Assembly (NCBI GenBank): GCA_902500205.1
Contig: GCA_902500205.1_4868.1
Direction: 5' to 3' (one strand)
From: Escherichia coli
Lineage (GTDB): Bacteria; Pseudomonadota; Gammaproteobacteria; Enterobacterales; Enterobacteriaceae
Length of the DNA stretch: 64,000 nt
The notes beneath the pieces are model-generated. The model saw nothing but the letters and a program-made list of their open reading frames with translations. It was not told the DNA's origin and did not search any database. This document shows, one piece after another, positions 22,542-56,478 of this stretch (its first letter is position 1; the number at the start of each line of letters is the position of its first letter). The position numbers and the translations under genes were made by a program.

Positions 22542-22591
22542 CGTTACACGTTAACGCTTTAATCGACTATTACCCAGAAGGAGTATTTACA

Positions 22592-22990
22592 ATGACTAAC
22601 CAACTACGCCAAGACCCGTTTGTTGCCATGATGCTTTGTGCTAAAGCCGAGAGCAACGAAGCCGATTTAATTCGTCTGTTGACTGATGACGAATACCTTA
22701 TCTCCGAGCGCGATAAACGTTTAAAAGAACTCTACAAGCCAGAAACCGGTGAATCGCTCGGCAATCAAGACGCCTGGAAGTTTCTTATTCTTGTTGCTGA
22801 TGAAACGTGGCGAGCAAAAAATCCCATCGTCTGTGATATTACAGACCTACCGTACAAATACGGCGGACTCATCACTAGCGACCAGCACCTTAAAGCGTTC
22901 TTTGTTGGTGAAGCAATGCAAGAACTGCAAGATGTTCTTATTACAGCAACGGACACTTTGAAACGTTTGCGCGCCGAGCAGCTAATCTGA
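22592..22990 (+). CDS. hypothetical protein (132 aa)
   Basis: ATG preceded by conserved leader TTAATCGACTATTACCCAGAAGGAGTATTTACA. Confidence 0.65.
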   Translation: MTNQLRQDPFVAMMLCAKAESNEADLIRLLTDDEYLISERDKRLKELYKPETGESLGNQDAWKFLILVADETWRAKNPIVCDITDLPYKYGGLITSDQHLKAFFVGEAMQELQDVLITATDTLKRLRAEQLI

Positions 22991-23044
22991 TCTCTCAAAA
23001 ATCACGAATCGTACAAATCCTTTGACTGTGTAGGAAGGAATAAA

Positions 23045-23434
23045 ATGAAAATCGCAGAGGGGTTAGTAGATGCGTGCAGAGACCCATTCACGCTGTGGGT
23101 TCTTTGTGGCTTGCGCCGAGACGATCGTTTCGGTGAGTTTGTTCGAAATCCAGATGCTTTACTAAGCTTCGTAGAAAGCGAGGAGAAGCGTTTAGAGGAG
23201 ATTAAAGAGGAAAGTAGTACCCTTACACCAGATATGGTGGTTTATAGCCGTATGACGTCACACAGGTGGCGTACGACCCATCGGCTGAAGGGAACCTCAA
23301 TGAAGGAATTGATTGAAGGGTTATCAAAGGCGCTTTCGTCTGATAACATTATCTGGCCGGTGTTGTATACCAACGAAGACCATTCTGATAACGTGAAGGT
23401 TACACTGACACGTTGTTATCACACATTCTCGTAG
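23045..23434 (+). CDS. hypothetical protein (129 aa)
   Basis: ATG with AGGAAGGAATAAA leader. Confidence 0.65.
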   Translation: MKIAEGLVDACRDPFTLWVLCGLRRDDRFGEFVRNPDALLSFVESEEKRLEEIKEESSTLTPDMVVYSRMTSHRWRTTHRLKGTSMKELIEGLSKALSSDNIIWPVLYTNEDHSDNVKVTLTRCYHTFS

Positions 23435-23468
23435 TAGTTAATCGACCATTACCGTAAGGAATATTTAC

Positions 23469-24140
23469 ATGCAGGGCACTGAACTCAACAAACTTTGGGA
23501 AAAACTGGTTCGTCAATTCCGCGACTTCTATCGATATACCGATAGCGCGCATCGCATGGATCACATCAACTCAGTTAAATCAAATGCGATTCGTATCGCG
23601 TATATGCTTGGGCAAACCGAACACCTGAAGCTGATACTGATTGCGGTGGCAGCTCACGATATCTTCTCTACCAAAGAAGACCGCGCGTCACACCACATCA
23701 AAGGGTATAGCTGGATACTGGATAACAAGCCAGTGCTCAAACGTAAGTATAAACTTACCGATGATGAATGTTTGACGATTGCCCATGCAGTCTTAGAACA
23801 CCGCAGTTCTCACAAAGGGAACTACAACGGGATTGTCTCTGAGATAGTTGCCGCAGCTGACCGCGGTATACCGTCTGTAGATGACGTGAGCAATTACATG
23901 CACCGTTCTTATCTGTTTGCCCGTGAACAGGGTAAAAGTAAAGGCGATGCAAAATTCCATGCCGTTGGTCACGTCCAACAGAAGTTCGGACGCAACGGTA
24001 TTAGTAATGTCCCTAGTTGGTACGGTACGCTCTTCGCAGAGCGCATTCTGGAACGCAGGGATTTCGTGGAGCAGCTAGATATTAGCTATTTCACAGATAC
24101 CATTATCGACGACCTCGAAGCTCGTCTTTCACACGATTAA
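23469..24140 (+). CDS. hypothetical protein (223 aa), weak HD-domain-like H...HD pattern
   Basis: ATG preceded by conserved leader TTAATCGACCATTACCGTAAGGAATATTTAC; HRMDH and AAHDIF motifs. Confidence 0.65.
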   Translation: MQGTELNKLWEKLVRQFRDFYRYTDSAHRMDHINSVKSNAIRIAYMLGQTEHLKLILIAVAAHDIFSTKEDRASHHIKGYSWILDNKPVLKRKYKLTDDECLTIAHAVLEHRSSHKGNYNGIVSEIVAAADRGIPSVDDVSNYMHRSYLFAREQGKSKGDAKFHAVGHVQQKFGRNGISNVPSWYGTLFAERILERRDFVEQLDISYFTDTIIDDLEARLSHD

Positions 24141-24166
24141 TCACACTGACCTTAAGGAATATTAAG

Positions 24167-24655
24167 ATGGCTGAAGTAACTTCAATGAAAGCACTGCACA
24201 AACTGATCGCTGAACTGGACACGCCGGCAGCAACCCTGTCCGAAGACCTGGCGCTGAATGCTGAGCCGCTGGTTAAGATTTACGAAGAAACACTCCCCGT
24301 AACGAAAGTTGGGGATGTGGACTATCGCTTCACACTGGAAGACGCGGACGCTCTGCGACAGCACGACGCAAACTTCACTGAACTGTTCGGTGGCATTGCC
24401 GGTGGTCTGATTGCTGACCGTGCGAAAGCGGATAGCGAAATCGGTGCACTGGACTTAACGCTGGATATCGGTAACGCAGCATTCTCTACCGTGTTCTCTC
24501 GCCCGGTTACTGAAAACCCAACTCAGAAAGAATGGGCAGCGTCCATCTCTTACGGTTACGGTTCTCCAAAGTCTAAAGCGTTGGAAGGCAAGCTGCGTAA
24601 AGAGTTTGCCAAGTCCATGATGGCAACTGATGAAGAAGACGAAGACGACGAATAA
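24167..24655 (+). CDS. abundant small acidic protein (162 aa, C-terminal DEEDEDDE)
   Basis: Conserved leader plus AAGGAAT RBS; codon usage strongly skewed to CTG/CGT/GGT/AAC. Confidence 0.75.
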   Translation: MAEVTSMKALHKLIAELDTPAATLSEDLALNAEPLVKIYEETLPVTKVGDVDYRFTLEDADALRQHDANFTELFGGIAGGLIADRAKADSEIGALDLTLDIGNAAFSTVFSRPVTENPTQKEWAASISYGYGSPKSKALEGKLRKEFAKSMMATDEEDEDDE

Positions 24656-25017
24656 TGATTCCGTCCAGCCCAAAGGAACTCGCTGAGCTACTCGGGGCTA
24701 AAGTGGAATGTCATCCTAATGTGAATCCTGCTACTGGGTTACGTTGGGATGGCACCATTGCGTCACACGAGGAAATCGGTCTCACCGTCACCTTCCCTAA
24801 ACCTATGCCTGCGCCTATTGCGCTTGCTGTTAATCCTAAATTTTATCGAGAGGAATACACCATGTCACAATCAGAAAACGCGAAACAAGTTATCGTAGAC
24901 ACCTTGCAGGATTTTGACCCGGAAGAGTTCGGGCCTGATGCCGACGGCGGTGAAGCACGTGCTGCGCACATTGCAGAAATCATTGAAGAAGCCTTGAAAG
25001 AAAAAGGCTTCCTCTAA
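24655..25017 (+). CDS. hypothetical protein (120 aa)
   Basis: TAATG stop-start overlap with upstream gene; alternative internal start at 24862 with GAGAGG RBS. Confidence 0.45.
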   Translation: MIPSSPKELAELLGAKVECHPNVNPATGLRWDGTIASHEEIGLTVTFPKPMPAPIALAVNPKFYREEYTMSQSENAKQVIVDTLQDFDPEEFGPDADGGEARAAHIAEIIEEALKEKGFL

Positions 25018-25074
25018 AGAAAACATTAGGGTGGTCTTATGACTGCCCTATTTTTTTTTGATTTTGGAGCTACA

Positions 25075-25617
25075 ATGAAGCAACTTAATACTCTCGGTCA
25101 GGATGATATCAAACCGATTCCATCTGATATGAAACGTGAAGACATTATTCGCCACATCAATCAGATCGGTGACGTGTTTACGTTGTCCATGAAAGCCATA
25201 TTGGAAGACGCATTCGAAACCATTGCCGAATATCCGGTTGAGATTATTCCGCACACCATCAACGGCTACCAGCGTTTTCTCGACACTATTACCAAAGGTA
25301 GTAGTGGTCGTATCATCGCAGGCTTTATCATCCGCTTTAAGTGCTTGTTGCAAGTAGAGCTGGGTGACGAGGTACTCCGTCGGCTGGAACACGAACTCAT
25401 TAGCATGTCTGCCAACGACATTCTCGCGGCCGAATCGGGGCAAGGTTATAAAGACGGGATGTCTCTCTGGAAGATTGCCCATCCTGACCTAGGTGACGTT
25501 CAACCACCGTCTGAGTTCGATGTGCTCGTAACTTATCTGTTACTGCTGCAAATTAAGAACCTATTAATTCGTGCTAATGCGCAGCGTGAAATTGATGCTA
25601 GCCAACCGAAAAAATAA
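25075..25617 (+). CDS. hypothetical protein (about 180 aa)
   Basis: ORF 25039..25617; ATG at 25075 has GGAG 6 nt upstream. Confidence 0.6.
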   Translation: MKQLNTLGQDDIKPIPSDMKREDIIRHINQIGDVFTLSMKAILEDAFETIAEYPVEIIPHTINGYQRFLDTITKGSSGRIIAGFIIRFKCLLQVELGDEVLRRLEHELISMSANDILAAESGQGYKDGMSLWKIAHPDLGDVQPPSEFDVLVTYLLLLQIKNLLIRANAQREIDASQPKK

Positions 25618-25620
25618 AAC

Positions 25621-25663
25621 GTACCTCTCTCCATCCGGAGAGAGGTAACGCTTGTTTTTTTTG
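25621..25663. terminator. bidirectional intrinsic terminator
   Basis: Hairpin ACCTCTCTCC-ATCC-GGAGAGAGGT flanked by A-run and T-run; sits between convergent genes. Confidence 0.65.
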
Positions 25664-25665
25664 TC

Positions 25666-26541
25666 TTAGCGCATCTGGTTGGCCATCTGCTCGTCGGAGA
25701 CAGAGTTGTAGCCACCTGGGGTTGCGTTGACGTCCGGGTTGATACCATCGGTCTGCTGAGACGGAGTGAGCCACAGTTTGCGTTCGTAAGGACGCAGACC
25801 GTACAGCTTCATACGGTCCAGCTCTTTCGCAGCGGCCTGCATCGGACCCCAACCTGTCCATTGCTGGGAGGTAAAGGCGATTGACAGTTCGTTAATCTGC
25901 GGACCGGTGTTGGTTTCACGCTCACCGATATCCTGGCCAGCGGTTTCCGGAATCATGTTCGTTAACCACCACGCGTTCTGCGGTTTACGCTGATACGCAT
26001 CTGGCTCGATGAACAGCACGGTCATGCTGTACATATCCGGCAGGTGGTCAGGAACGTTCGGGTTGATTGCGGCCAGGCCTGGGTGACCAGTCTGGGGATC
26101 ACAAACACCGTAAACCAGCCACGCCCACAGCATGTTCTGGTACACCTTCCCGAGTTTATCCGGGGTGGTGAAGGTAACAGAGGACAGTGCTTCCGTTACC
26201 AGACCAGCTTCATACTGGGTACGGTTGTTACGACCCTGCTGAGTTTCAACAGCCGCATGGCTCAGGGTTTTATCCAGGCCAGTAATCTCGGAGTGAACCT
26301 CGATAAAGGACTTGATAGCCTGACGCCACATCTGCGGGTTCGGCATGTAATCCACCCAACGAGGGAATTCCATGACACGCGCAATGACGTTACGACGCAG
26401 ACGAGAGGCGTTAGTAACGAACTTGCCAACCTGTCCAACCGGGCCGTTTTGGCCCGAGGAGAACGCGTTGACCATATCGTACTGGCCGCCGTCGACGTGC
26501 AGACCCTGATCAGGCAAAATGAGACGATCTTTGATTGCCAT
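25666..26541 (-). CDS. tail tube protein candidate (291 aa)
   Basis: Directly downstream (3-nt gap) of sheath-sized gene on same strand; size typical of myovirus tube protein; assignment by order and size only. Confidence 0.7.
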   Translation of the reverse strand: MAIKDRLILPDQGLHVDGGQYDMVNAFSSGQNGPVGQVGKFVTNASRLRRNVIARVMEFPRWVDYMPNPQMWRQAIKSFIEVHSEITGLDKTLSHAAVETQQGRNNRTQYEAGLVTEALSSVTFTTPDKLGKVYQNMLWAWLVYGVCDPQTGHPGLAAINPNVPDHLPDMYSMTVLFIEPDAYQRKPQNAWWLTNMIPETAGQDIGERETNTGPQINELSIAFTSQQWTGWGPMQAAAKELDRMKLYGLRPYERKLWLTPSQQTDGINPDVNATPGGYNSVSDEQMANQMR

Positions 26542-26544
26542 CTA

Positions 26545-28590
26545 TTAGCTCTCCCGACGGTAAACTTTGATAGTGGTGTTGAACTGGGTGAGCAGCACAC
26601 CGCCTTCAGCGATCAGGTCCAGCGTCACAGAGTAACCATTGGATTTATCGTCTGCAGTGAAGTACGCCTTCGGAGTGACGACAGCAACGTTATCGAGACG
26701 GCCTTCCAGACGTTCGATAATTTTGTTCTCAATCATCTTCGCACGTTCATCATCCGTCATGGCCGCTTCGCCAGACATGTCCGCCCATACACGGTCGGAA
26801 ACACGATAGACGTAGGTCATCATGAAGTTGAACAGGGCGTTGTTCAGTACAGAACGATCTTCGCTGTAGATTGACTGAATCGCCGGAATGAACAAGCGAT
26901 AGTAGTCGTAGGAACGGGCAGTGATCAGCGACACATCCCAGTCAGACGCATACACTTCGTTGCCTTTCCACGGCATACTCAGGTCAGTCAGATCTTCGAT
27001 AATCGTCAGTTCGCCACGGCTGAAACGATAAGCCGGTTTTGCACGACCGTCGCCTGCACCCAGGTACTTCGAGAAGAAGTTCGCCAGGGAGTAGTTCATC
27101 GGAACAGGCTTCTTGTAGGAAGAGTTCTTGATGAACGCCGATTGGCCGGTGACCATACCACGTGCAGCCGGAGTGCCGTAATAGGCAGATTCCGGTACCG
27201 CTGTGATCAATTCGATCAGGGCGATTTTTGCACTTTCTTCTGTCTGCTCATCGTTACGACCTTGGTTGTAAACGTGAGTCGCCAGCGTCAAGAAGGTGTT
27301 ACGTGAACGACCGATGAAGTTCACGAGCGCAGCTTTAGTATCGAAGCTAAAGCCAGAGTCCCAGAAACAACCCAGCGAGTATTTCAGCTCGTTGTCGTAA
27401 CGGACTTTACCGCCATCCGGGAACAGCAGCATTTCACGGCGAACGAGTTCGTCGTAAACGTCGTTGTTCATGGTACCATCGCTACCACCTTGCAGGTAGT
27501 GGATGTTGGATGCGGAGAACACAACTTTACCGGTTTCAGTAGCCGGGTTTACCTGAAGACCATCGTAAGGCTGGCCCAGTAAATCATAGCCGCCAAAGAT
27601 GTCAACCATATACGGGTCAGCAGGCGCATCAGTTGTGATAGCGGCCTGAGCCAAGCCCAGTACAGTTTCCAGGTTCTCGCGATACAGATAGAACTGCTCG
27701 AAAGGACCATAATCTGGCAGCTCGCCAATGTCAGGCATCGTCTGACGATATGCATCCGCAACAACAACTTCGAAGTCGAGTTGCGTTCTCATCGGCTGAT
27801 AGTATGCATCGGGCTTAAAGCTAAAATTGATGCTACTCATGCCAGTGAGAGTTTTCCACACTACCGGAGAAGTCACGCCTGCCAGGGTTTCGAACCATTG
27901 CAGGGTGTAAACACGACCACCGACTTCATTTTGATAGGAGGAGGTCAGAGCCGGGCTGGATTTCTCGCTGAGTGGGATCAGTTTGAAACCGAAACCGTTG
28001 ACGTCAGCACCCGCATACGGGCCTGCGATATCGAACAACGGATACAGCTTCGATTTCGTGCCGCCTTCGCCAGTCATCGTCCCCTCGATAACCACACCTG
28101 CGCCGATGGCCGGGGTAGTTTCGTCGATTACGACAGAACGGAAGACGATTACCAAACCGTCAACTTGTTCTTTGATCTTGGGCTTGCCCGAGTTGTCGTA
28201 CTGAACGATCCCGTTGCTGTCGCGTTCGTAGGACGGAACTTTCGTTTCGAGTACGTCGGCGAATACGCGAACACTTGCGGTTTTCGCATCTTCAGGGATC
28301 AAGCGCTGATACATACACTCGTTTGCGTTAGCGTTGAACATCGCCTGATAGGGCGTGTTGAACGTCGCGTAGGGGCCTCGCAAGTCAAAGACATTGCGAC
28401 CAAGCAGAGACAGTGCATTATCCCCGGTTAACGGGAACGCCTCGTTGTCTACCCCGCGCGCGGCAAAGGTGAAGATCAGCGGCTTATGAATTGCGTCACC
28501 CGTAGGGGTACGCACAAGCTCGGGGACAGAGTTATCCTGCCAACCTTGCTTGTTATTCAACGGCGCGCCGTTTCGTGGAATAAAAGTCAT
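26545..28590 (-). CDS. tail sheath protein candidate (681 aa)
   Basis: ATG with GGAG upstream; size and sheath-then-tube order typical of contractile tails; no motif confirmation possible. Confidence 0.75.
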   Translation of the reverse strand: MTFIPRNGAPLNNKQGWQDNSVPELVRTPTGDAIHKPLIFTFAARGVDNEAFPLTGDNALSLLGRNVFDLRGPYATFNTPYQAMFNANANECMYQRLIPEDAKTASVRVFADVLETKVPSYERDSNGIVQYDNSGKPKIKEQVDGLVIVFRSVVIDETTPAIGAGVVIEGTMTGEGGTKSKLYPLFDIAGPYAGADVNGFGFKLIPLSEKSSPALTSSYQNEVGGRVYTLQWFETLAGVTSPVVWKTLTGMSSINFSFKPDAYYQPMRTQLDFEVVVADAYRQTMPDIGELPDYGPFEQFYLYRENLETVLGLAQAAITTDAPADPYMVDIFGGYDLLGQPYDGLQVNPATETGKVVFSASNIHYLQGGSDGTMNNDVYDELVRREMLLFPDGGKVRYDNELKYSLGCFWDSGFSFDTKAALVNFIGRSRNTFLTLATHVYNQGRNDEQTEESAKIALIELITAVPESAYYGTPAARGMVTGQSAFIKNSSYKKPVPMNYSLANFFSKYLGAGDGRAKPAYRFSRGELTIIEDLTDLSMPWKGNEVYASDWDVSLITARSYDYYRLFIPAIQSIYSEDRSVLNNALFNFMMTYVYRVSDRVWADMSGEAAMTDDERAKMIENKIIERLEGRLDNVAVVTPKAYFTADDKSNGYSVTLDLIAEGGVLLTQFNTTIKVYRRES

Positions 28591-28647
28591 GGAACGTCTC
28601 CATATATTCGTCTTAAAGACCTGATGGTCATACTAAGGATCATACTC

Positions 28648-29553
28648 ATGGCACTCGAAAACGCTTACAGCGGTAATCCCTTTAATGCACTTGACCTTAC
28701 TCGCACCAAGGCAGACCTGGAATTAGCCCGTAAACTTAACCAAACTGTCTCGCAGTCCGATGAAGTTCATTACGTTGTTGAGACCGCTGATGTAAAACCG
28801 TTTCCTTTGCCGATTGTTATCGGCGACGACGTTTATGTATACGCAGCCACGTTTACCACGCTGGATAAGACCAACGAGCTAAAAATACGAAACCCAGTCG
28901 AACACGCATTGCGTCTCGACCAGGCTCGCTGGGAATTGGTGTGGAAACGGAGTAATGGTAAGCTTGCTGCACTGATGGCACAGATGCCCTACCACCATGA
29001 GATTTTCAGCAAATGGGTGTCGGATGCGATTACCCACACGTTTGCACTTGCTCCATATCAAAGTGGGCAAATCAAAGCGTTGGCTGCATTGTTCTCTGTG
29101 GGACAGTTCTATAATCACGTCGAAGATGATGTGAAAGCTTTACGTTTGCAGCAGATGCTGGAGCAACAATTAGGCTTACCTGCGGAACTGTTTGAATCAG
29201 TGACAGGCCACACAGAATATCTTTTCCCGCGTAATATCGCAGAATTCGTCGAAATGGTGCAGGCTGCAGATATCACTCCGCGGGTGCGTGACCTGAGCAT
29301 TCTGTCTCTGCAGCAGATGTTGAATACCAGCTTCTTCGGGGTGAGTTATGAAAAACAACTCGCTACCAGCGCCATCGAATATCCGCCTAGTCTCTTCGTT
29401 ATGATTAAGGCTTGTCTGGATAATAACATGTTTAACCGCAGTCGGTTAGGTGGGATTGTGAAGAAGTCAGACACCGCTAAGAAACGCGATAAGTTTGAAT
29501 TCACCTACAACCTTCTGATGAATCAAAACACCAAACCACTGAACATCAAGTAA
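28648..29553 (+). CDS. hypothetical protein (about 301 aa)
   Basis: ORF 28486..29553 overlaps sheath gene; ATG at 28648 has AAGGA upstream. Confidence 0.6.
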   Translation: MALENAYSGNPFNALDLTRTKADLELARKLNQTVSQSDEVHYVVETADVKPFPLPIVIGDDVYVYAATFTTLDKTNELKIRNPVEHALRLDQARWELVWKRSNGKLAALMAQMPYHHEIFSKWVSDAITHTFALAPYQSGQIKALAALFSVGQFYNHVEDDVKALRLQQMLEQQLGLPAELFESVTGHTEYLFPRNIAEFVEMVQAADITPRVRDLSILSLQQMLNTSFFGVSYEKQLATSAIEYPPSLFVMIKACLDNNMFNRSRLGGIVKKSDTAKKRDKFEFTYNLLMNQNTKPLNIK

Positions 29554-29563
29554 GAGGCCCACT

Positions 29564-32077: not shown

Positions 32078-32079
32078 TC

Positions 32080-44983: not shown

Positions 44984-45073
44984 ATTAGCTAACGCCCAGT
45001 AGCTATGTTCCTGACGATTAGCCCTCGTCTGACCTTGTAAGACCTTGTAGATTTACATGCCAACACCAGGGAA

Positions 45074-45116
45074 GTCCTCACTCTTCGGAGTGAGGACAAC
45101 TCTTTTATTTTTTTTG
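45074..45116 (+). terminator. intrinsic terminator
   Basis: GTCCTCACTC-TTCGG-AGTGAGGAC followed by long T-run. Confidence 0.7.
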
Positions 45117-45132
45117 TATTCCAAATATACAC

Positions 45133-45154
45133 AGATAGATATTACCTAAGTGAG
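45133..45154 (+). promoter_or_regulatory. recurrent promoter-like motif AGATAGATATTACCTAAGTGAG
   Basis: Family member; about 55 nt upstream of ATG at 45207. Confidence 0.4.
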
Positions 45155-45206
45155 ATGAGAAAGCCTCATCTGAATTCTCCCAACTCGACTATAAAAGGTA
45201 TGCATC

Positions 45207-46157
45207 ATGTACAGACCAAGTAATCCTAGCGCTATCGAAGGATTAAACCAGGATGGCTTCAGCCTCGCAGAAGCAACCCGCATTCGACCTTTCTTACCTC
45301 GCAGATTCTTCCCTTTCGGTTCGTTATACAGAACGAACTTTGACGCCTGGGAAGCGATACGTGCTGTAAAAGATGCACTACAGTACAAGAACTTCGAATT
45401 CCGATTTGTGTTCAAATGGGGCAACGGCGAATTGCTCCACTACTTCGGATTCCAACAGAACGAGTTTATTGAGTATACCTCACCTACGTACCACACCAGG
45501 TTCTTAAGTATCGAATTCGTTCGCCATTTCGGCGATGCACTCTTTACGGAACGTGCGGCAGATGAAAACCATGGACGTAGGCTGGTGTTAACGAACGGTG
45601 GATTACGCATCAAGATGAATCGTTTACGGGAAGCGTATAACCAGCTCATCAATCCTGAACCGGTAATGTTTCCAACAGTCGCAGATTTGAACGTTACACC
45701 ACTCCAGCTACCTGTGGATATAGACAAACCGATCCTGGCAATCAGAGCACTGCAGGCAGGTTACGCAAACTGGTATAAAGGGCACAGTCTCCCGAACACC
45801 AGATTGAACATCGAACCGTATGAGTTGTGTTTATTCTTAACTCTACGCAAGCGGTTTGAGCCAGATAACTTAGACTTACGTTATCTGGCTAAAACAGATA
45901 GCGGTAGTTACTACCCAACGACCTGGATGCTAGCGGCTGTACTACCCGGCGGTGAAATTATCGGTAACCCTGTCACCGATGTTCAACAGTTACCATCACC
46001 GTTAGCACCACCGAAGGATTCAATCTATCCATACGCTTCGTGGTACGCGAGTAGTATTGGCGTGAGGTGGTTGATGTTACACGTTCCCGAAGAGGTCTAT
46101 AATTTATTCCCGCATGAGCAATGGCTCCGTGCGTATGAAATTCGGTTTGGTTGGTAG
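45207..46157 (+). CDS. hypothetical protein (316 aa)
   Basis: ATG with AAAAGG upstream. Confidence 0.75.
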   Translation: MYRPSNPSAIEGLNQDGFSLAEATRIRPFLPRRFFPFGSLYRTNFDAWEAIRAVKDALQYKNFEFRFVFKWGNGELLHYFGFQQNEFIEYTSPTYHTRFLSIEFVRHFGDALFTERAADENHGRRLVLTNGGLRIKMNRLREAYNQLINPEPVMFPTVADLNVTPLQLPVDIDKPILAIRALQAGYANWYKGHSLPNTRLNIEPYELCLFLTLRKRFEPDNLDLRYLAKTDSGSYYPTTWMLAAVLPGGEIIGNPVTDVQQLPSPLAPPKDSIYPYASWYASSIGVRWLMLHVPEEVYNLFPHEQWLRAYEIRFGW

Positions 46158-47121: not shown

Positions 47122-47166
47122 AGTACCTCTACGCGAGTAGAGGTACGGAATCTTTCTTTTTTTTGT
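47122..47166. terminator. bidirectional intrinsic terminator
   Basis: GTACCTCTAC-GCGA-GTAGAGGTAC with A-run upstream and T-run downstream between convergent genes. Confidence 0.65.
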
Positions 47167-47978: not shown

Positions 47979-48098
47979 TCTAAGGCTCCTATGAAGCTCG
48001 TAGGACAACTCATACCATCGGGTAATGCTATCCCATTACCTGACATTAAAATACGTTTTACGACCTTTATGTGCGCACCATACTCGAAGAAATTTTGC

Positions 48099-48118
48099 AT
48101 AGATATTATCTTCGTGAA
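48099..48118 (+). promoter_or_regulatory. recurrent promoter-like motif ATAGATATTATCTTCGTGAA
   Basis: Family member; about 25 nt upstream of operon start at 48142. Confidence 0.4.
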
Positions 48119-48141
48119 TTATCCTTAAGGAGCATTTCTCG

Positions 48142-49022: not shown

Positions 49023-49035
49023 CCCCAGCGACATC

Positions 49036-49344: not shown

Positions 49345-49726
49345 GTTCGTGCGATTGACTTGCCGACTCACCGCACTCGTCAAAGAGAATCTCGGCATCG
49401 ATTACCAGGATGCTGCGGTAGAGCTTGACGACTATATCGAGCAAATTGTTCGGTTGCATGTTCTGCGGAAAAAATATGGCGTTATCGATAGCATGATACG
49501 CCAGTTCTTTATGGAGTATGTTCACGATAACCCAATCATTACTCCAACCACGTCGGCAAAATACTGGGCTCTTTGTCGATTTGAGTTGTTGATACGGGAC
49601 ACCGATTGCATCTGGCAAGCAATCGACGAGGACATGACTTATTTACCACAATCCGACTTCCTCCTTTGGCATGTAGGAGATGGTGTCTGGAAAATGTTAA
49701 CTACAGGGGTTACTTACAATGATTGA
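49319..49726 (+). CDS. hypothetical protein (135 aa)
   Basis: Complete ORF in operon. Confidence 0.6.
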   Translation: MSMMTVYTEFVRLTCRLTALVKENLGIDYQDAAVELDDYIEQIVRLHVLRKKYGVIDSMIRQFFMEYVHDNPIITPTTSAKYWALCRFELLIRDTDCIWQAIDEDMTYLPQSDFLLWHVGDGVWKMLTTGVTYND

Positions 49727-50228
49727 GCGATCTCATTTTTATATCCCCGGCTATCAGTTATTGGCTGGGCCGTTAACGGAGTTTTCGCCAAACGATGTGC
49801 TCCGCGAAGTGAATGACGATTTGAACTCGATAATCAATACCGCCATGAGCTTCGTGGAACGTGGAACCATTGGTAGTGAGTTAAAGTTTATGATGAACAA
49901 TACCTTTGGGTTTGTTTCTCGTACACTGAATGCGCACGGCGTTGTGTTGGAAAATGAGCAAGTAATCACTTACGGCACCGCAATTCAAAACATCGGTCGT
50001 GCGTATATGACCGCCGTATCGCAGTCTCCTTATTGGTTTACTCACTACGGTCGTTGGGTCGGTGCACAATACACAACGCGCAATCCGGCGGATGTCGAAT
50101 TCTTATTAGACTATAACGGTGGTGATAAATTCCCACAGTTTGCCAGCCAGGAAGCGTACGAGCGAATCACCCCACAACTTCTGCCTGTTATCGATTTGCT
50201 TATCGGTAATCTCGGAGGTCGTGTATGA
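49719..50228 (+). CDS. hypothetical protein (169 aa)
   Basis: 8-nt overlap with upstream gene. Confidence 0.65.
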   Translation: MIERSHFYIPGYQLLAGPLTEFSPNDVLREVNDDLNSIINTAMSFVERGTIGSELKFMMNNTFGFVSRTLNAHGVVLENEQVITYGTAIQNIGRAYMTAVSQSPYWFTHYGRWVGAQYTTRNPADVEFLLDYNGGDKFPQFASQEAYERITPQLLPVIDLLIGNLGGRV

Positions 50229-50713
50229 GCGTTCTGTTTGATGTGGCGGATATTGCGAACCAATATAGCGCGACTCGGTTTTACGAGCATGTTCGTGAAG
50301 CGGCATTGCGTGTACTGGAAGCCAGTAACCTGGAGATTGATGAAACACAGATACGTGATTTTTATCAACGTTTTGCGTTTGCGTATATCATCGGTGTGAA
50401 AACTCGTGACCCTTCGACGATGGTTGATTTGTTACAGGAAGACACGCTTGAACCTCTGGGCAATTGGGAGTTGGTGTCCGATGGTCTGTCCGTTGACCAG
50501 TTCGCTAAGGAAACGTCTGTCGATACGACGTTTCTGGCAGCACAAGGTTCGCCCGAACAACATCAAGCCGCCTTCGGCGCTGCGGTAAGTTTGCTGGCCG
50601 AAGAGTTAACAAACTTAACTGGTTTTGCTGGGCTGATAGAGTCGCTGTATCCGGGGCGATATCAAACGTATGTGGGTGATAGTTTTAACGATGTGGTGTT
50701 AATCTGCGAATGA
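50225..50713 (+). CDS. hypothetical protein (162 aa)
   Basis: ATGA stop-start overlap. Confidence 0.65.
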   Translation: MSVLFDVADIANQYSATRFYEHVREAALRVLEASNLEIDETQIRDFYQRFAFAYIIGVKTRDPSTMVDLLQEDTLEPLGNWELVSDGLSVDQFAKETSVDTTFLAAQGSPEQHQAAFGAAVSLLAEELTNLTGFAGLIESLYPGRYQTYVGDSFNDVVLICE

Positions 50714-51141
50714 AACTGTACATGACCATAGGCGAAGTCTTCAAATATGAGTCGTTGTTGGCACGGGCCGAGATTGCTGATACTAGCGAGATCGAGCCCG
50801 CTGTCGCTTATTTGTTTCTGGCCAGTTACGCCGAATTAACGGTACGTTCTATTGTTAATGGGCTAGGTAAGGGTAAGAACTTTCTTACTTTTATTCCCCC
50901 AGACCCTGCGTTGATACTGGAACAGTTGCGCGGGATGTGGGGTACTGAAAAGGTGCTGCCTCTAAACTGCTACAGCATGAGCAGTGGGATTAAGGATGAT
51001 GTTCGGTTCTATGAAATCCTTTCCGTGATAGAACGTGTGTGGGGCATGGCTGGCTTGACTCCAGAAGACGGAGCAAAAAAGACAAAGGTTTCACTCCTTA
51101 TGAATGAAATTGGCAACGCACTCATCTGTGTTGAATGTTAA
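50710..51141 (+). CDS. hypothetical protein (143 aa)
   Basis: ATGA stop-start overlap. Confidence 0.65.
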   Translation: MKLYMTIGEVFKYESLLARAEIADTSEIEPAVAYLFLASYAELTVRSIVNGLGKGKNFLTFIPPDPALILEQLRGMWGTEKVLPLNCYSMSSGIKDDVRFYEILSVIERVWGMAGLTPEDGAKKTKVSLLMNEIGNALICVEC

Positions 51142-51150
51142 GGAGTACGA

Positions 51151-51750
51151 ATGATCTACAAGGTGATCGCCAACCACTTGATTAATGTGGACTTGGGGGT
51201 CGTGGGGTATCTTCCGGACGGTATGCGGTTTTTGGATTTGGTGGTTGACACCGTAGTCCGCCTACCGCGTATCACCGTGGAGATACCCGTAAAAGAATTG
51301 GACCAGGACGAGATACACGAACTTATACGTGAAACGCTGACTAGCTATACGTACGAGTTTCGTTGCATGTTGCCTCGCACCGACCTTACGTTCTTGCACG
51401 ACTTCTTTACGTTACTGACTGACGAGTACCGTCGGTGGAAGTTTAATGTTGCAATGGAAGCCAGCACTGAGTCACATTTTAACGGGCTGACACCATTGTT
51501 AGATTTAGCGTTGGTGTACAAAGAGCAAGACAGTTCACACTGGGCCACGCTCAAGCACTACACGTTGGATCTAATGGCGACCGCCGTAACGGAGGCAGTT
51601 ATGGCGCATTATGTTGAGCCGGTGAAGATGTTCTTAGAGGCGCATAATGGCGCTATCCGTACGTTGGTTCTCAAGGTGGACTTCCCGAAAACACCAGTGA
51701 CCAATGCTTTGGATATGAGGCTGCTTATTGATGTTCCTGAGGAGGAATAA
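51151..51750 (+). CDS. hypothetical protein (199 aa)
   Basis: ATG with AAGGAG upstream. Confidence 0.7.
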   Translation: MIYKVIANHLINVDLGVVGYLPDGMRFLDLVVDTVVRLPRITVEIPVKELDQDEIHELIRETLTSYTYEFRCMLPRTDLTFLHDFFTLLTDEYRRWKFNVAMEASTESHFNGLTPLLDLALVYKEQDSSHWATLKHYTLDLMATAVTEAVMAHYVEPVKMFLEAHNGAIRTLVLKVDFPKTPVTNALDMRLLIDVPEEE

Positions 51751-52160
51751 TGTTCGATTTACGCACACTGGTCGCTGGGCAAAAAGTTAACATTGTTTAC
51801 GACACCCCTTTGAAAGGGCAAGAGACGCGTGTAATTATTCTGGCAACCGGCGTTGGCTATGAAATGGCCAAAAGCTATATGGATGTGATGGCGGAGCAGA
51901 AGAATATCTACTCATCCATCGTCTCTCAGCCAGAAGATAACGTGAACAAATACACGTATCTGATTTTCAAAGGTGTTGACGGCAAACCAAAAGTCGCTGC
52001 CGATGCCTGGATTCGTGATGTTCAGATTATCGAAAACACGAAGGTGCGCTTCACCGTCACCCTGGATAACAAACAGGAGATTGACGACCTTAAACGCGCC
52101 CTGGCTGCCAATGGTTTCAATGATGTCGATTTTGAAATCGTTGAGAGCATTGCCGGTTAA
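51750..52160 (+). CDS. hypothetical protein (136 aa)
   Basis: TAATG overlap; GAGGAGG RBS. Confidence 0.7.
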   Translation: MFDLRTLVAGQKVNIVYDTPLKGQETRVIILATGVGYEMAKSYMDVMAEQKNIYSSIVSQPEDNVNKYTYLIFKGVDGKPKVAADAWIRDVQIIENTKVRFTVTLDNKQEIDDLKRALAANGFNDVDFEIVESIAG

Positions 52161-52164
52161 AGTA

Positions 52165-52202
52165 ATCCCACTCTTCGGAGTGGGTTATTTTTTTTTCTTT
52201 TT
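52165..52202 (+). terminator. intrinsic terminator closing the operon
   Basis: CCCACTC-TTCGG-AGTGGG followed by TTATTTTTTTTTCTTTTTT. Confidence 0.7.
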
Positions 52203-52251
52203 TCACGTATCCCGCAAGTCTTATAGCTGAGTAAAAACCAAGGGGCCAGAC

Positions 52252-54531
52252 GTGGACTACAATTCACCATTTCGTCTTAGTCAAGACGAGTATCATCGCG
52301 ACATTGACGTTATCGATGCGTACTACGAACAACTGGCGCTCTACATTCATACCGTCACCAACGGGAAATATTCTTTGGAGTTCTGTCGACAGCAGGTCGA
52401 AGAAATGTTCCAACCTGGTGGTGAGTTAGTACACGAATTCCCCGTGTGTAAGATGTGGGTGCGCAATCAAAAGACCGGCGATCGCGAAGAAAAATACACC
52501 ACGGTAGATAAACTGTTCCGTACAGTGATTGATAAGCAGATCATTTCTGCACCGTCGTTGACTTTCTATTTGCCGGAACACGTAAAGCGTTCTAAGCTTG
52601 CCGAATTTACCGCAGAGAACGTGCGTAAGCGTGCGGTGGTTAAGAAAGAGATGTATGCGGCCGGTGCTGCAGGCAACGAAGTTTTACGTATTAACAAAAA
52701 GAACGAACAGAACGCTGTTAAAACGCTGAACAACGGGATGTCTGGTGCATTCTCATCACCGTACACGGTAATCTTTAACCAGTCTTCGCACTCTGTATTG
52801 ACGTCAACCTGCCGTACGGCTACATCGTTCGGTAACGCGGGCAACGAACGTCTACTGGGCGGTAATCGTCACTACGACACGCCGTCCCGTGTTATCGACC
52901 ACTTACTGTCTATTGGTACACTGACTAACTTTGCGGAGTTCAAGAAGTGTATGGAACTCTATAACCTCCACTACCCAACAGTGGACGAGGTTATGGAAGT
53001 GGTTATGTACTCTGCAGAGTTTTACTTCCGTAACGACGAAGGGCTGGAGTTCATTCGTCACTACGTCGGTAATTGTAGCCCGCTGGTACGTGCAGCGTTT
53101 GTCTACATGGGTGACTTCTACCACCTGGCGAAATACAACGATGAATTCATGCGCGGATTTATCGGTGCGCTGATTGCCGAGGAGATGGAAGACGAGATCA
53201 CCGATTGGGATGCTGCTGAGCGCTCTATCGACGGTGACATGCAGATCATTATCTCGCAGTTCCGTACTGATATCGTGCCGTTAGGTAAGTCGTTCTCTGA
53301 CGTTAAACTCAAAGACGAAAACACGAACAAAGCGGAACCGTGGGATAAGCAGGAAAAATACAAAGAGCTGATTCGCTCAGCTGTGTATCTGCAGAAAACC
53401 ATCGGTAAGTACGCGTGCTTGATTCGTAATATCCTGACCACCAAAAACCTGCCAATCAACATTGCCAGGATGCCTGATGTGGTTCGTCGTGTTGGCGTGG
53501 TGTCTGATACCGACTCCACGATGATGACTGCACAGTGGTGGGCGCAGTGGTATACCGGTCAACATTACGGTCGTGAAGCTACGCGCGTATCGGATGCGAT
53601 GATTTATATCGCAACCCAGCACTTACGTCATCTGATGGCGAGTATGTCGGCGAATATCGGTGTGGCGAAAGAGCGTCTGTTTTTGTACGCAATGAAGAAC
53701 GAATTTAAGTTCGACTCCTTTGCGTTAACCACGAAAGCAAAACACTATTTCTCCATCATCACTGGCCAGGAAGGGCAGTTGAAGTCTGACCCTGAGTTAG
53801 AAGTTAAGGGCGTGTCTTTACGTACGTCGAACATTCCTCCGGTGGTCATGAAAGAGTTCAAACGCACGATCAAAGAACTCTGTGAGATCGTGGCACGTGG
53901 TGACAAGATTAAGATTCTGCCTCTGCTGGAAAAGGTTGCTGCAATTGAGCACGTTGTGGTGGACTCTATTCGTGCTGGTAAAGCAGGCTACCTGAAAACA
54001 ACCAACGTCAAAGACCGTAGTGCGTACTCTGAAGATGATGAAAAGAGTTACCACTACCACCGCATGTACAACGCTATCTTTGGACCGAAGTACGGCTACC
54101 TGGACGAACCGCCTTATGACGCCGTGAAGCTTCCGGTAAACCTGGAGAACAAAACAGCCGTTAAAGAGTGGCTGGAAAACATTAAAGACCCGATGATTAA
54201 GACCACCGCAACACGGTGGTTCGAAGAAAACAACTATCGTACCTATCGTACTCTGATACTGCCAGAGTTCCTGGTGGAAAACTTCGGTATTCCGCCGGAG
54301 CTGATTGATGCTGCAGACACACGTCGAAGCGCATTCTCCACAGTAGAACCTTACTATCACATTCTGGAATGTCTGGGTGTGTTCATGATGGACAAGAATA
54401 GAACTCGTCTGCTTTCGGATTACTACGGTGAGTCTGTAGATTCCGTCAAGGAAGAATTAGGTAGTGGTGAGTACGTTAAGAAATCTGAACGTGATGGAGA
54501 GGAAGAAGATGGGGAAGAAGCGGAGGAGTAA
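52252..54531 (+). CDS. hypothetical protein (759 aa)
   Basis: GTG start with AAGGGG 6 nt upstream (no in-frame ATG upstream); long ORF. Confidence 0.8.
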   Translation: MDYNSPFRLSQDEYHRDIDVIDAYYEQLALYIHTVTNGKYSLEFCRQQVEEMFQPGGELVHEFPVCKMWVRNQKTGDREEKYTTVDKLFRTVIDKQIISAPSLTFYLPEHVKRSKLAEFTAENVRKRAVVKKEMYAAGAAGNEVLRINKKNEQNAVKTLNNGMSGAFSSPYTVIFNQSSHSVLTSTCRTATSFGNAGNERLLGGNRHYDTPSRVIDHLLSIGTLTNFAEFKKCMELYNLHYPTVDEVMEVVMYSAEFYFRNDEGLEFIRHYVGNCSPLVRAAFVYMGDFYHLAKYNDEFMRGFIGALIAEEMEDEITDWDAAERSIDGDMQIIISQFRTDIVPLGKSFSDVKLKDENTNKAEPWDKQEKYKELIRSAVYLQKTIGKYACLIRNILTTKNLPINIARMPDVVRRVGVVSDTDSTMMTAQWWAQWYTGQHYGREATRVSDAMIYIATQHLRHLMASMSANIGVAKERLFLYAMKNEFKFDSFALTTKAKHYFSIITGQEGQLKSDPELEVKGVSLRTSNIPPVVMKEFKRTIKELCEIVARGDKIKILPLLEKVAAIEHVVVDSIRAGKAGYLKTTNVKDRSAYSEDDEKSYHYHRMYNAIFGPKYGYLDEPPYDAVKLPVNLENKTAVKEWLENIKDPMIKTTATRWFEENNYRTYRTLILPEFLVENFGIPPELIDAADTRRSAFSTVEPYYHILECLGVFMMDKNRTRLLSDYYGESVDSVKEELGSGEYVKKSERDGEEEDGEEAEE

Positions 54532-54644
54532 GAATAAGTCACGATCGTGTGTACCACAAACAATAACCGTTACGTGGGTGGACCCAGCACCGGTACCGAC
54601 GGCGCTACTCAATCTTTGGTTATCTTATCTAAAGGATGAACATT

Positions 54645-54917
54645 GTGTCGAAACGAAACAGTAAAGCAAATAACTGGGGCTGGCGACAGCTCTATTTGCA
54701 CAGCCAGCCTAACCTGGTACGGCAGCATGTGTTGTCTTTGCCGACGCAGTTTCAAACAATGGCATCGTGTGAAGGTTCAGTATCGCCACGCGATGATCGT
54801 TGGAAAACCGTGAAACCGGTTGTGTCTATTGACAAGCAATTTGACAATCCTCTCGACGGTTGGTTTGCAGCAATAGGCGGTTTAAACGTACGGGTGGAAG
54901 GGTATGTATCGAAATAG
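54645..54917 (+). CDS. small hypothetical protein (about 90 aa)
   Basis: Track ORF 54636..54917; GTG at 54645 has AAGGA 8 nt upstream. Confidence 0.35.
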   Translation: MSKRNSKANNWGWRQLYLHSQPNLVRQHVLSLPTQFQTMASCEGSVSPRDDRWKTVKPVVSIDKQFDNPLDGWFAAIGGLNVRVEGYVSK

Positions 54918-55101
54918 TGGGAAGTCCACAGAGATGATAACCGCAATCCGTCGCGACCTCGAAGAACGAGGTTGTGTGGATATTGAGTTGCATCAGGCAG
55001 GCGAAACGGTGCATATCACGGCATTGGATGCCAAACGGAAACGTAGCATCACTGTGTGGGGTAAACCGTACGCAAGTGATCTCACGGAGACGATAAAATA
55101 G
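54904..55101 (+). CDS. small hypothetical protein (65 aa)
   Basis: ATG with GAAGGG upstream; followed by terminator. Confidence 0.4.
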   Translation: MYRNSGKSTEMITAIRRDLEERGCVDIELHQAGETVHITALDAKRKRSITVWGKPYASDLTETIK

Positions 55102-55110
55102 TAGACAGAC

Positions 55111-55156
55111 AAAAAAAATAAAAAAAAGAACTACACACCGAAGTGTGTAGTTTTTG
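55111..55156. terminator. bidirectional intrinsic terminator
   Basis: A-run, hairpin CTACACAC-CGAA-GTGTGTAG, T-run; between convergent genes. Confidence 0.65.
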
Positions 55157-55204
55157 TATATAGTATGAATACTCGAAAGAGTGTTCGCGAGGAGAGAGTA
55201 AGTC

Positions 55205-56272
55205 TTATTTTTCTTCTAGCTCTGTCATCAACGGGATAATCAAATCGCGTTGGATGAAGTTATAGAAGGATTTGGTCAAACGTGTGAGGACTTTAGAGTC
55301 CACATAACGCGCCAAATCAACCAACATCGTACGTTTGTGTTTCTCCATATTCCCCTGGTTGTATTGAAGACAAAACAGTGCCCAGTACCAGTTCACCATG
55401 TTCTGGTGCCAGGTGTTCTGCAGTGTTTGACCTGGTTCTCGAAAGACAATCAGTTCCAGTGCAGTGTGGCCTTCTTCATCAGGGTGTTGGAAGAACAATG
55501 GGATGTTGTTTAAGACTTGTCCCGGTAACGGGTTGGCAGCCAGTAGTTTACTACGGATGCCTTTTGCGTGCTTCACAGCTAAAGCTTGAAGCGGCGGAAC
55601 AGGAATGACACGTAATGTTTCATCCGGTTCAATCTCTTTCCCGAAGGCTATCGCACGATGTATATTTACAAAGGCGATATCCATGTAGCTCGGCAACATG
55701 CGAGAGATCACATGTCGTTGGAGATACACAGGTGTGGCAATAGGTTCGGTACCGCGACTGTAGTGCTGCTGGCCTTTGACATATTGCCAAAGCAAAGCAA
55801 CCAGGTTGATTTCGATCACCGTAACACCTCGGGGCCGTCCGTCACCGAACTTCCAATTGAGGTTGGTATACTCATGGTAGAGGTAACGGGCGGGGGTGTA
55901 GTCGCGGAACGAAAGGTCTGGATTTACTGGGCGGGCTACGAGAGAGATTACCTCATCTTGGCCCTGGATAAACTTGCTATTAAAGATTTGACCGTACTCA
56001 CCAACAGACGTCAAGCGTAAGGCGTTACCGATCTGAACAAGCTTGCGACGGCAAGCCCATTCGATGTCTTCGTACTCTGGTTCACCGGCATAGCCGATGG
56101 CAGACAACACCTGTTGCAACAAATGGCCATTACCAGCACTGCGATTAAGCTGTTCGAAGTAGTTGCGTATACGCTGGCTGTTGTTTTTTACGTGAGCCGC
56201 TAATGTTATAGCGGAGGGGTCCGTGCTGTGACCCTTTATGGCCACTTGGTTTAACTCGGCTTGGCTGAACAT
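55205..56272 (-). CDS. hypothetical protein (about 355 aa)
   Basis: Track ORF 55205..56293 begins with GTG; ATG at 56272 has TAAGGAG 6 nt upstream. Confidence 0.75.
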   Translation of the reverse strand: MFSQAELNQVAIKGHSTDPSAITLAAHVKNNSQRIRNYFEQLNRSAGNGHLLQQVLSAIGYAGEPEYEDIEWACRRKLVQIGNALRLTSVGEYGQIFNSKFIQGQDEVISLVARPVNPDLSFRDYTPARYLYHEYTNLNWKFGDGRPRGVTVIEINLVALLWQYVKGQQHYSRGTEPIATPVYLQRHVISRMLPSYMDIAFVNIHRAIAFGKEIEPDETLRVIPVPPLQALAVKHAKGIRSKLLAANPLPGQVLNNIPLFFQHPDEEGHTALELIVFREPGQTLQNTWHQNMVNWYWALFCLQYNQGNMEKHKRTMLVDLARYVDSKVLTRLTKSFYNFIQRDLIIPLMTELEEK

Positions 56273-56323
56273 GGCAGACTCCTTAGATTCCACATAGGAA
56301 GTCAGTCACAGTCAAAAATATCT

Positions 56324-56348
56324 CAGATTGATATTATCTATGTGACAG
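56324..56348 (+). promoter_or_regulatory. recurrent promoter-like motif CAGATTGATATTATCTATGTGACAG
   Basis: Family member upstream of the abundant 617-aa protein gene. Confidence 0.4.
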
Positions 56349-56419
56349 TTCCTGAGAAATGTCTGGACTATGTGCCTTGTAAGTAAGCGACGGCGTACTT
56401 GCATTCCATGGAATTACAG

Positions 56420-56439
56420 GCAGATATTATCTCTGCGAA
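56420..56439 (+). promoter_or_regulatory. recurrent promoter-like motif GCAGATATTATCTCTGCGAA
   Basis: Second copy about 40 nt upstream of ATG at 56479, followed by conserved leader. Confidence 0.4.
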
Positions 56440-56478
56440 CCGAACTATGATTGCAATCACTATTAAGGAATATTTAAA

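Follow-up and report, generated by a model that had tools for sequence, protein, structure and literature searches.

The DNA analysed here is a 64,000-nucleotide (nt) stretch of an Escherichia coli assembly (GenBank GCA_902500205.1, contig GCA_902500205.1_4868.1), called the window throughout, and our subject is a short leader box that precedes the Shine–Dalgarno (SD) sequence and start codon of several of its genes. A megablast search with window positions 22000-25000 gave 31 near-full-length matches, at 95-99% identity, to the SPN3US group of Salmonella jumbo phages (Seoulvirus), and the window comes from such a phage (~98% identity); in SPN3US coordinates it runs from ~200.7 kb past the record end to ~24 kb. 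SPN3US-like phages are relatives of phiKZ, have multisubunit RNA polymerases of two kinds, virion and non-virion, and are independent of host transcription (PMC7598289). Judging from sequence comparison, the box belongs to a feature larger than an earlier note on this DNA had seen, one that is kept over several genera and that may extend the ribosome-binding site of probable early phage genes. The genes concerned, named by the position of their start, and the features around them are as follows, with classes A and B of early-type promoter described further below.

Gene 22592: homologue of SPN3US gp249.
Gene 23045: homologue of SPN3US gp250.
Gene 23469: homologue of SPN3US gp251, an HD-domain protein.
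Gene 24167: homologue of SPN3US gp252.
Gene 45207: homologue of SPN3US gp5.
Gene 56479: homologue of SPN3US gp22.
22457..22495, + strand: terminator-like hairpin with a UUCG loop and a T-run at the end of the preceding operon (gp248 homologue); the RNAfold energy of 22448-22497 is -18.3 kcal/mol, with UCUUUUUAUUUU coming next.
22517..22541, + strand: class A early-type promoter CTGAGATATATATTACTTAGGTGAG of gene 22592, with transcription predicted to start near 22536-22538.
22539..22559, + strand: 5'-terminal stem-loop AGCGTTA/TAACGCT with a 5-nt loop, in the predicted early transcript of gene 22592.
22561..22572, + strand: leader box AATCGACTATTA of gene 22592, an exact 12-mer (19.8 bits) beginning at -31 from the ATG.
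22578..22594, + strand: SD block AAGGAGTATTTA, CA and ATG of gene 22592.
23440..23451, + strand: leader box AATCGACCATTA of gene 23469 (19.8 bits), beginning at -29 from the ATG; the intergenic spacer is 34 nt long.
23456..23471, + strand: SD block AAGGAATATTTA, C and ATG of gene 23469.
24137..24169, + strand: eroded leader TTAATCACACTGACC, TT, AAGGAATATTAA, G and ATG of gene 24167; the CGACYAT core is lost and the position weight matrix (PWM) score is below 0.
45064..45117, + strand: terminator-like hairpin with a UUCG loop and a T-run, 5' of the gene 45207 cassette (RNAfold -22.0 kcal/mol).
45133..45154, + strand: class A-like promoter AGATAGATATTACCTAAGTGAG of gene 45207, with 0 mismatches to AGATAKATATTAYYT.
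45153..45171, + strand: 5' stem-loop AGATGAG/CTCATCT with a 5-nt loop, in the gene 45207 cassette.
45183..45194, + strand: diverged box ACTCGACTATAA, abutting a weak SD (AAGG) and beginning 24 nt before the ATG at 45207.
56325..56339, + strand: class B early-type promoter core AGATTGATATTATCT, distal, of gene 56479.
56418..56432, + strand: class B-like promoter core AGGCAGATATTATCT, proximal, of gene 56479, with 2 mismatches.
56455..56481, + strand: eroded box AATCACTATTA (AATC-ACTATTA, one base short of AATCGACTATTA) fused to SD block AAGGAATATTTA, AA and ATG of gene 56479.

How far does the similarity between these leaders extend? The earlier note had described four genes (22592, 23469, 24167 and 56479) as nearly identical from about -33 to the ATG. 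This description fits genes 22592 and 23469; the other two have the SD block and an eroded box only. The full box TTAATCGACYATTACC occurs without mismatch only at 22559 and 23438, and a search of the window allowing 3 mismatches found no further site. The SD block was rightly placed before all four genes, as AAGGARTATTWA stands exactly at 22578, 23456, 24154 and 56465, 13-14 nt 5' of the respective ATGs; these 4 matches compare with 0.89 expected in the window, and 4 was reached in 0 of 100 shuffles. For the box, we trained a 12-column PWM on copies from Erskinevirus only and scanned both strands of the window; because the training set came from another genus, circularity is avoided and the scan serves as an independent check. 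Its top three sites were 22561 and 23440 (19.8 bits each) and 45183 (16.2 bits), the last being the diverged box ACTCGACTATAA, in agreement with the partial copy that had been proposed before gene 45207. The leaders of genes 24167, 56479 and 23045 all scored below 0. A second proposed partial copy, AATCACGAATCG before gene 23045, also dissolves in a comparison of leaders over -33..-1: its identity to the other leaders (18-20 of 33 positions) is background, random gene leaders of the phage giving 17.3 +/- 2.4 with a 99th percentile of 23. On the same scale, the leaders of 22592 and 23469 (gp249/gp251) agree at 27/33 positions, those of 23469 and 24167 (gp251/gp252) at 25/33 and those of 24167 and 56479 (gp252/gp22) at 26/33.

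For genome-wide counts, we put together the SPN3US genome from five pieces, with its annotation. Six exact copies of AATCGACYATTA are present against ~0.06 expected, all on the sense strand and all 29-31 nt 5' of starts (gp66, gp101, gp135, gp184, gp249 and gp251). Four of the five one-mismatch copies also lie at most 60 nt 5' of a start (gp30, gp56, gp131 and gp182), and the minus strand holds no copy with at most one mismatch. A loose version of the box core falls within -50..-10 of 13 SPN3US genes (binomial P ~1e-8). The copies cluster among small genes of unknown function (gp55/56, 131-137, 180-184 and 249-252), and none was found upstream of SPN3US genes annotated as structural, replication or RNA-polymerase genes. 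For gp30 (SPN3US 23831-23886), translation probably starts 27 nt upstream of the annotated position, at an ATG that follows GGAG and is found 28 nt downstream of the box's beginning, immediately behind a class B promoter.

The SD block consists of AAGGAG or AAGGAA and an A/U-rich spacer of 7-8 nt, and AAGGARTATTWA occurs at 10 SPN3US genes, always at -13/-14. It is a module separate from the box: four of these 10 genes carry the box, one of them only as the eroded gp22 copy. The related string GGARTATW stands at 18 SPN3US genes, of which five overlap the box genes (Fisher P = 8e-4). Together with the position of the box, which ends 0-5 nt before AAGGA in all clades examined, the recurrence of this block supports the suggestion that the leaders form an optimized translation initiation region.

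Is the box confined to SPN3US and its closest kin? A search with a 100-nt cassette sequence matched 58 phage records, some of them from Erwinia phages of other genera, and the cassette is common to the Erwinia jumbo-phage genera Erskinevirus and Machinavirus and to metagenomic jumbo contigs. Where the class A promoter occurs in relatives, a hairpin comes next in all of them and an SD-adjacent box in most. The form of the box varies by clade: (T)AATCGACYATTA, then N4-5 and AAGGAG, in Seoulvirus and Erskinevirus; (A)ATCGACYATC or tTGACYATC, fused to AAGGA, in Machinavirus-like phages; and CGACTTGTTAACCTAAAGGAG in the metagenomic clade. The core CGACYAT is nonetheless preserved in three genera as well as in metagenomic relatives, whereas the loops of the hairpins and the coding sequences have diverged. 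Orthologous leaders of gp101 (SPN3US against Asesino and phiEaH2, two genera) illustrate this, in that the segment from box to SD (A[A/T]TCGACTATTAATCTAAAGGAGTATT) has hardly changed, in contrast to the hairpin loop, the spacer between SD and ATG and the coding sequence, all of which have diverged. Likewise, in paralogous cassettes the loop and the hairpin-box, box-SD and SD-ATG spacers all vary around a constant box—an island of conservation. Machinavirus-like leaders also have the heptamer ACTATCA on both sides of the SD (ttgACTATCAaggaatACTATCAtg), and TATTA and TATTTA flank the SD likewise in SPN3US. A scan of IMG/VR with box plus AGGA gave, among the matches listed, mostly chance matches on unrelated contigs.

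This pattern bears on another account of the similarity, namely that it is mainly a by-product of cassette duplication and recombination, the cassette being a portable expression unit and a homology patch by which small genes are shuffled, and the box having no biochemical function of its own. The clustering of copies just described would suit such an account, as would the leaders of the neighboring gp251 and gp252, which look like diverging duplicates, and the whole unit, which mirrors the architecture of the PeSL cassettes of T4-type phages (PMC2839356). However, a conserved island between variable spacers is unlike the outcome of simple shared ancestry or gene conversion, the core outlasts the divergence of loops and coding sequences across genera, and the box also occurs detached from the promoter. 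Rearranged copies, candidates for PeSL-type recombination junctions between close relatives, are present in several deposited SPFM genomes, including SPFM5 (16249-19309) and SPFM12 (19143-20463), where the locus is permuted in 20-60 nt pieces. These are the sole apparent rearrangements at the locus; they resemble scrambled assemblies, and the record description reads 'XXX.', so that we rejected the SPFM genomes as natural recombinants at the box. We regard the by-product account as improbable.

The earlier note had also suggested that the box may mark a transcription start, which the layout of the leaders does not support. The predicted start of gene 22592 lies ~25 nt before the box, with a hairpin between them, and the 34-nt spacer before gene 23469 contains no promoter motif. 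More generally, transcription from each class A promoter is predicted to begin before the box is reached, and the box is therefore transcribed. In Machinavirus-like leaders the distance from predicted start to box ranges over 29-47 nt, while that from box to ATG is 19-21 nt, the box abutting the SD (..GACYATCAAGGA..). At SPN3US gp180 and gp184, an extra terminator-like hairpin with a T-run separates the 5' hairpin from the box, which still stands beside the SD; these two leaders (SPN3US 165687-165790 and 167500-167625, respectively) are attenuator-like, an arrangement that we saw in no other cassette. Some genes without a promoter motif carry the box as well, namely gp251 (in the window) and, with the box in or just after the upstream coding sequence, SPN3US gp131, gp182 and gp183. 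At Machinavirus-like loci, 6 of 13 box copies are of this kind, including those of three consecutive ChrisDB genes. On these comparisons, the box is an independent module that appears to track the SD and ATG rather than the promoter.

A promoter reading can be kept if the box is itself a second start site, a compact initiator-type promoter of a phage multisubunit polymerase. AATCGACYAT would then span about -10 to -1, with transcription beginning just after YAT at another time of infection and yielding a leader of 14-20 nt that carries the SD. Non-virion polymerases do use short elements abutting the start (T-3ATG+1 in phiKZ, A-11ACA-N6-TW+1 in AR9; PMC7598289), and the box has the same size and format; phiKZ gp54, with an early and a middle start, offers a precedent for tandem promoters (PMC8244752). 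Its occurrence on the sense strand only suits a promoter, as does its place right after the terminator-like hairpin and T-run of gp180 and gp184 and the presence of a separate copy before each of the operon-internal genes. However, TATG and AACA-N6-TW are both absent from the box, motifs similar to the middle and late elements of phiKZ are enriched separately upstream of other genes, and no box was found before annotated structural, replication and RNA-polymerase genes. The box-SD spacing in the Machinavirus-like group, fixed at 1 nt in every copy, would place the SD at +3, a rigidity not expected of a promoter. Moreover, no leaderless transcript was detected in phiKZ, whose 5' untranslated regions are typically 31-40 nt long (PMC8244752). 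We consider the initiator reading unlikely, though it is the main rival. If it were true, the box would add a new class to the promoters known for multisubunit RNA polymerases of phages.

The box and its cassette were also compared with individual promoter types. The phiKZ late promoter requires all four bases of T-3 A T G+1, and no TATG is found at 22561-22577 or 23440-23455; the AR9 late arrangement (A-11 ACA, 6 N, T, A/G+1) is likewise absent from the box. Also missing from the box is the A-rich TACT motif of phiKZ middle promoters, and the box is placed 3' of the predicted early start, 25-63 nt past the early-type promoter. With the early-promoter consensus AGATATATATTACYT, AATCGACYATTA has only TATTA in common, the upstream half being different. 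A scan of 22300-24700 for sigma-70 promoters found no site at the cassette. The single-subunit polymerases of T7 and SP6 recognize TAATACGACTCACTATA and ATTTAGGTGACACTATA, respectively. The box resembles the former, but the spacing misfits (CGACT-ATTA against CGACTCACTATA), and the resemblance of the class A sequence TTAGGTGA to the SP6 promoter was rejected together with this single-subunit polymerase reading.

What, then, drives transcription of the box-bearing genes? The class A motif, tttCAGATATATATTACYTAGGTGAG, has 7 copies in SPN3US, all before genes (gp5, 55, 66, 101, 135, 180 and 249). Its core AGATATATWTTACYTAGGTGA has 49 instances in IMG/VR, found only on jumbo-phage contigs of 107-246 kb and one 7-kb fragment; the carriers are SPN3US, phiEaH2, Caitlin, ChrisDB, Huxley, one more isolate genome and seven metagenomic contigs. 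The class B motif, the semi-palindromic AGATAGATATTATCT, lies ~45-50 nt before many SPN3US starts, including that of gp34, a gene for a non-virion polymerase subunit. In the window, class B also occurs at 48097-48111 and in two copies before gene 56479; such promoters usually have neither 5' hairpin nor box, and between gp220 and gp221 one class B site faces both divergent genes. Early promoters of jumbo phages are described as a conserved AT-rich block of ~10 nt centered near -10 that can be found bioinformatically (PMC7598289, PMC8244752, PMC11512511), and both motifs fit this description. It is by taking the phiKZ-type AT-rich block as centered at ~-10 that the start of gene 22592 is predicted at ~22536-22538 (PMC7598289). 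On the strength of promoter type, the box-bearing genes are probably early. Two other motifs are enriched in the -100..-1 region of SPN3US starts: WWTTACG (24 against 8.9 expected, 2.7-fold), which resembles the phiKZ middle element (A-rich plus TACT), and NTATGA (36 against 11.5 expected, 3.1-fold), which resembles the late element (TATG).

Together, these parts form a cassette of ~130 nt—terminator, early-type promoter CAGATATATATTACYTAGGTGAG, variable 5' hairpin, box, SD and ATG—of which the box is the 3' part. A simple terminator scan missed the hairpin at 22457..22495 because its stem is imperfect. After nearly all of the 47 unique class A promoters, a hairpin begins at most a few bases from the predicted start. 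These hairpins have a mean minimum free energy of -8.1 kcal/mol and a mean z of -2.2 against shuffles, and their stems differ by copy (GAGAGTT/AACTCTC, GAGATT/AATCT, GAGCGTT/AACGCT, GATAGA/TCTATC and GAGCATTGA/TCAATGCT). RNAalifold found no common structure on ungapped 30-nt leaders because loop lengths differ between them; hairpins were assessed by folding each sequence against its shuffles. In class A leaders, the predicted unpaired probability is 0.65 for the box, 0.36 for the hairpin region and 0.42 for the SD. The 3' arm of the 5' hairpin (AACUCU, AAUCU or AACGCU) looks like an anti-SD sequence and might base-pair with the AAGGAG SD instead (e.g., 22552-22558 with 22578-22584); arm and SD may form a structural switch.

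A predicted single-stranded element between a 5' hairpin and the SD, on the sense strand, is also where an RNA processing site might lie. Cleavage at the box by RNase E/G or a phage endoribonuclease would remove the 5' hairpin and so inactivate or mature early mRNAs. RNase E prefers A/U-rich sites with U at +2, and the Seoulvirus box contains YAUUA; the apparently early gene set would, moreover, parallel the targets of RegB in T4. Yet the Machinavirus box (GACYAUCAAGG) has kept CGACYAT but not the AUU context that recalls RNase E sites, and such sites are degenerate and have no need of a conserved CGAC. In addition, the operon-internal copies have no hairpin to remove, and we identified no candidate nuclease. 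Processing at the box seems to us improbable.

If the box acts as DNA, it could be the operator at which a phage repressor blocks early transcription. The candidate is gp101, an Xre/Cro-type helix-turn-helix protein (Pfam HTH_3, E 2e-7), and its orthologues in Asesino, phiEaH2 and the metagenomic clade keep the class A promoter and box, as would suit autoregulation. The Seoulvirus box is also an imperfect palindrome (TAATcGaCtATTA, 10/13 positions), but its arms are not kept in the Machinavirus CTAATCGACYATCAAGG or metagenomic CGACTTGTTAACC versions; a dimeric-operator reading from the TAAT..ATTA symmetry was rejected on the same ground. Also against an operator, all copies have a single orientation and stand at a fixed distance from the SD and not from the promoter, and some precede operon-internal genes with no promoter nearby. 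Moreover, chimalliviruses carry out their early transcription within a membrane vesicle, which may keep cytoplasmic proteins out (bioRxiv 10.1101/2023.09.20.558163). We attach only slight probability to an operator.

The existence of the element, its distribution, strand, spacing and conservation are matters of direct observation, and we take them as the basis for a reading at the level of translation: the box may act in the mRNA as a sequence-specific element that extends the ribosome-binding site of probable early genes on its 5' side, serving as translational enhancer or operator. We hold this reading tentatively, at somewhat less than even confidence; its action on RNA, its action on translation and the direction of that action are all things we infer. 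In the commonest arrangement, an intrinsic terminator would be followed by the early-type promoter CAGATATATATTACYTAGGTGAG, read by the virion RNA polymerase, and the transcript would begin with a stem-loop that probably protects it. Next would come the box, predicted to be single-stranded, a spacer of 0-5 nt, AAGGAG or AAGGAA, 7-8 A/U-rich nt and the ATG. At -30 to -19, the box falls within the mRNA segment that an initiating 30S subunit occupies. A putative factor reading the box there—a ribosomal component such as S1, or a dedicated RNA-binding protein of phage or host—would enhance translation initiation or later shut it off.

Several observations weigh against extension of the ribosome-binding site. 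Known S1-type upstream enhancers are A/U-rich and loosely defined, while the box has a G/C-containing CGAC core; a specific reader is therefore needed. Complementarity to 16S, 23S and 5S rRNA reaches only the 6-8 nt expected by chance. A promoter would be expected in the place that the box takes at gp180 and gp184, right after a terminator-like hairpin and T-run. The distance from start to box in class A leaders of Seoulvirus and Erskinevirus is nearly fixed too (mostly 28 nt), and in these genera the argument for the SD over the promoter therefore rests on the exceptions. Finally, the literature searched contains, for the SPN3US group, neither mapped 5' ends of transcripts nor data on translation or on expression over time.

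A more specific variant of the translational reading starts from the early-infection vesicle. The 5' hairpin and CGACYAT could together be the signature of mRNAs made there by the virion polymerase, a virus-specific 'zip code' for the passage from transcription compartment to cytoplasm. A conserved phage factor or phage-modified ribosomes would extract such mRNAs from the vesicle, load ribosomes onto them or later silence them. We put this forward as a speculation that is quite unlikely as it stands.

Our literature search found no paper containing the box or promoter strings and no transcript mapping for SPN3US or its relatives; the sequence is real and no description of it came to light, and its general kind (regulatory cassettes and leader elements of phage early genes) is known. 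Gene regulation in nucleus-forming jumbo phages is known mainly from phiKZ, 201phi2-1 and AR9, and we found none described for Seoulvirus, Erskinevirus or Machinavirus. For these genera, the present analysis provides a two-class early promoter consensus, a conserved 5' stem-loop and an SD-adjacent element that marks at least 13 SPN3US genes by its loose core. Should the box indeed control translation, it would offer a handle on coordinated posttranscriptional control of early genes and a compact, portable expression element for Salmonella and Erwinia.

The neighborhood of the cassettes has features of its own. The homologues of gp249 (22592-22990, 132 amino acids) and gp250 (23045-23434, 129 amino acids) have a weak N-terminal similarity (BLASTP E 0.027), with the common residues (Q/R)DPF..(M/V)LC and KRL(K/E)E(L/I), and may be old tandem paralogues; proteins with the DPF motif also stand behind class A cassettes in Erskinevirus and metagenomic relatives. 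Beside the cassette region lies a variable spot: the open reading frame after the gp252 homologue encodes 120 amino acids in the window and 67 in SPN3US (gp253), and the final 190 nt of the 22000-25000 query (24810-25000) are unmatched in the 20 relatives listed, megablast coverage ending at 2810/3001. Farther downstream, at 59763-60084 on the + strand, is a full-length group I intron (Rfam RF00028, 69.4 bits, E 1.6e-15). Because it spans the junction of annotated SPN3US gp23 (RNA polymerase beta subunit 1) and gp24, the two are probably exons of one polymerase subunit gene. For gp22, considered as a nuclear-shell protein, there was no Pfam match and no PDB sequence match.

How does the element compare with known systems? 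Rfam 15 gave no leader match at the gathering threshold over the whole window, and at E<=5 on 22450-24250 it gave two chance-level matches elsewhere. A phage antisense partner was rejected as well, the reverse complement of the box appearing among intergenic sense-strand sequence as one 8-mer only, beside the gp5 terminator. In T4, RegB cuts GGAG within the SD of early mRNAs, and RegA binds a loosely defined AU-rich sequence around the AUG. These systems share with ours a common cis element in the translation initiation regions of early mRNAs that allows coordinated posttranscriptional control; in contrast to theirs, the box lies 5' of the SD and is sequence-specific. The PeSL of T4-type phages is a repeated intergenic cassette of ~100 bp comprising an AT-rich region, a strong early promoter, a stem-loop, an SD and an ATG, and it precedes small genes of unknown function (PMC2839356). 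A repeated intergenic unit with the same order of parts is what we find here. The differences are that the PeSL promoter is sigma-70-like and its stem-loop a terminator, whereas our cassette has a virion-polymerase-type promoter, a separate upstream terminator, a stem-loop at the 5' end of the transcript and, in addition, a conserved linear box.

The T7 gene 10 transcript likewise begins with a 5' stem-loop, and its epsilon element, UUAACUUUA, is purely A/U-rich and was originally proposed to be complementary to 16S rRNA 458-466. Pairing of this kind was rejected for our box, whose longest complements are 6 nt in 16S rRNA (E. coli 60 and 873) and 8 nt in 23S rRNA. The element 5' of the SD in the T7 leader raises translation many-fold, an effect thought to come from contacts with the ribosome and S1 and not from rRNA pairing (PMC8748333). 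Both are transcripts of a phage polymerase, and in both a short element stands 5' of an AAGGAG-type SD with an A/U-rich spacer, within a leader of ~50-60 nt, and the box, too, is predicted to be single-stranded a few nt before the SD. The box AAUCGACYAUUA departs from the A/U-rich T7 element in its G/C core; it is common to at least 13 SPN3US genes (loose core) and to several genera, and its translational role is a prediction. By analogy, then, the T7 gene 10 leader appears to be the closest functional counterpart of the box, and PeSL the closest counterpart of the cassette as a whole.

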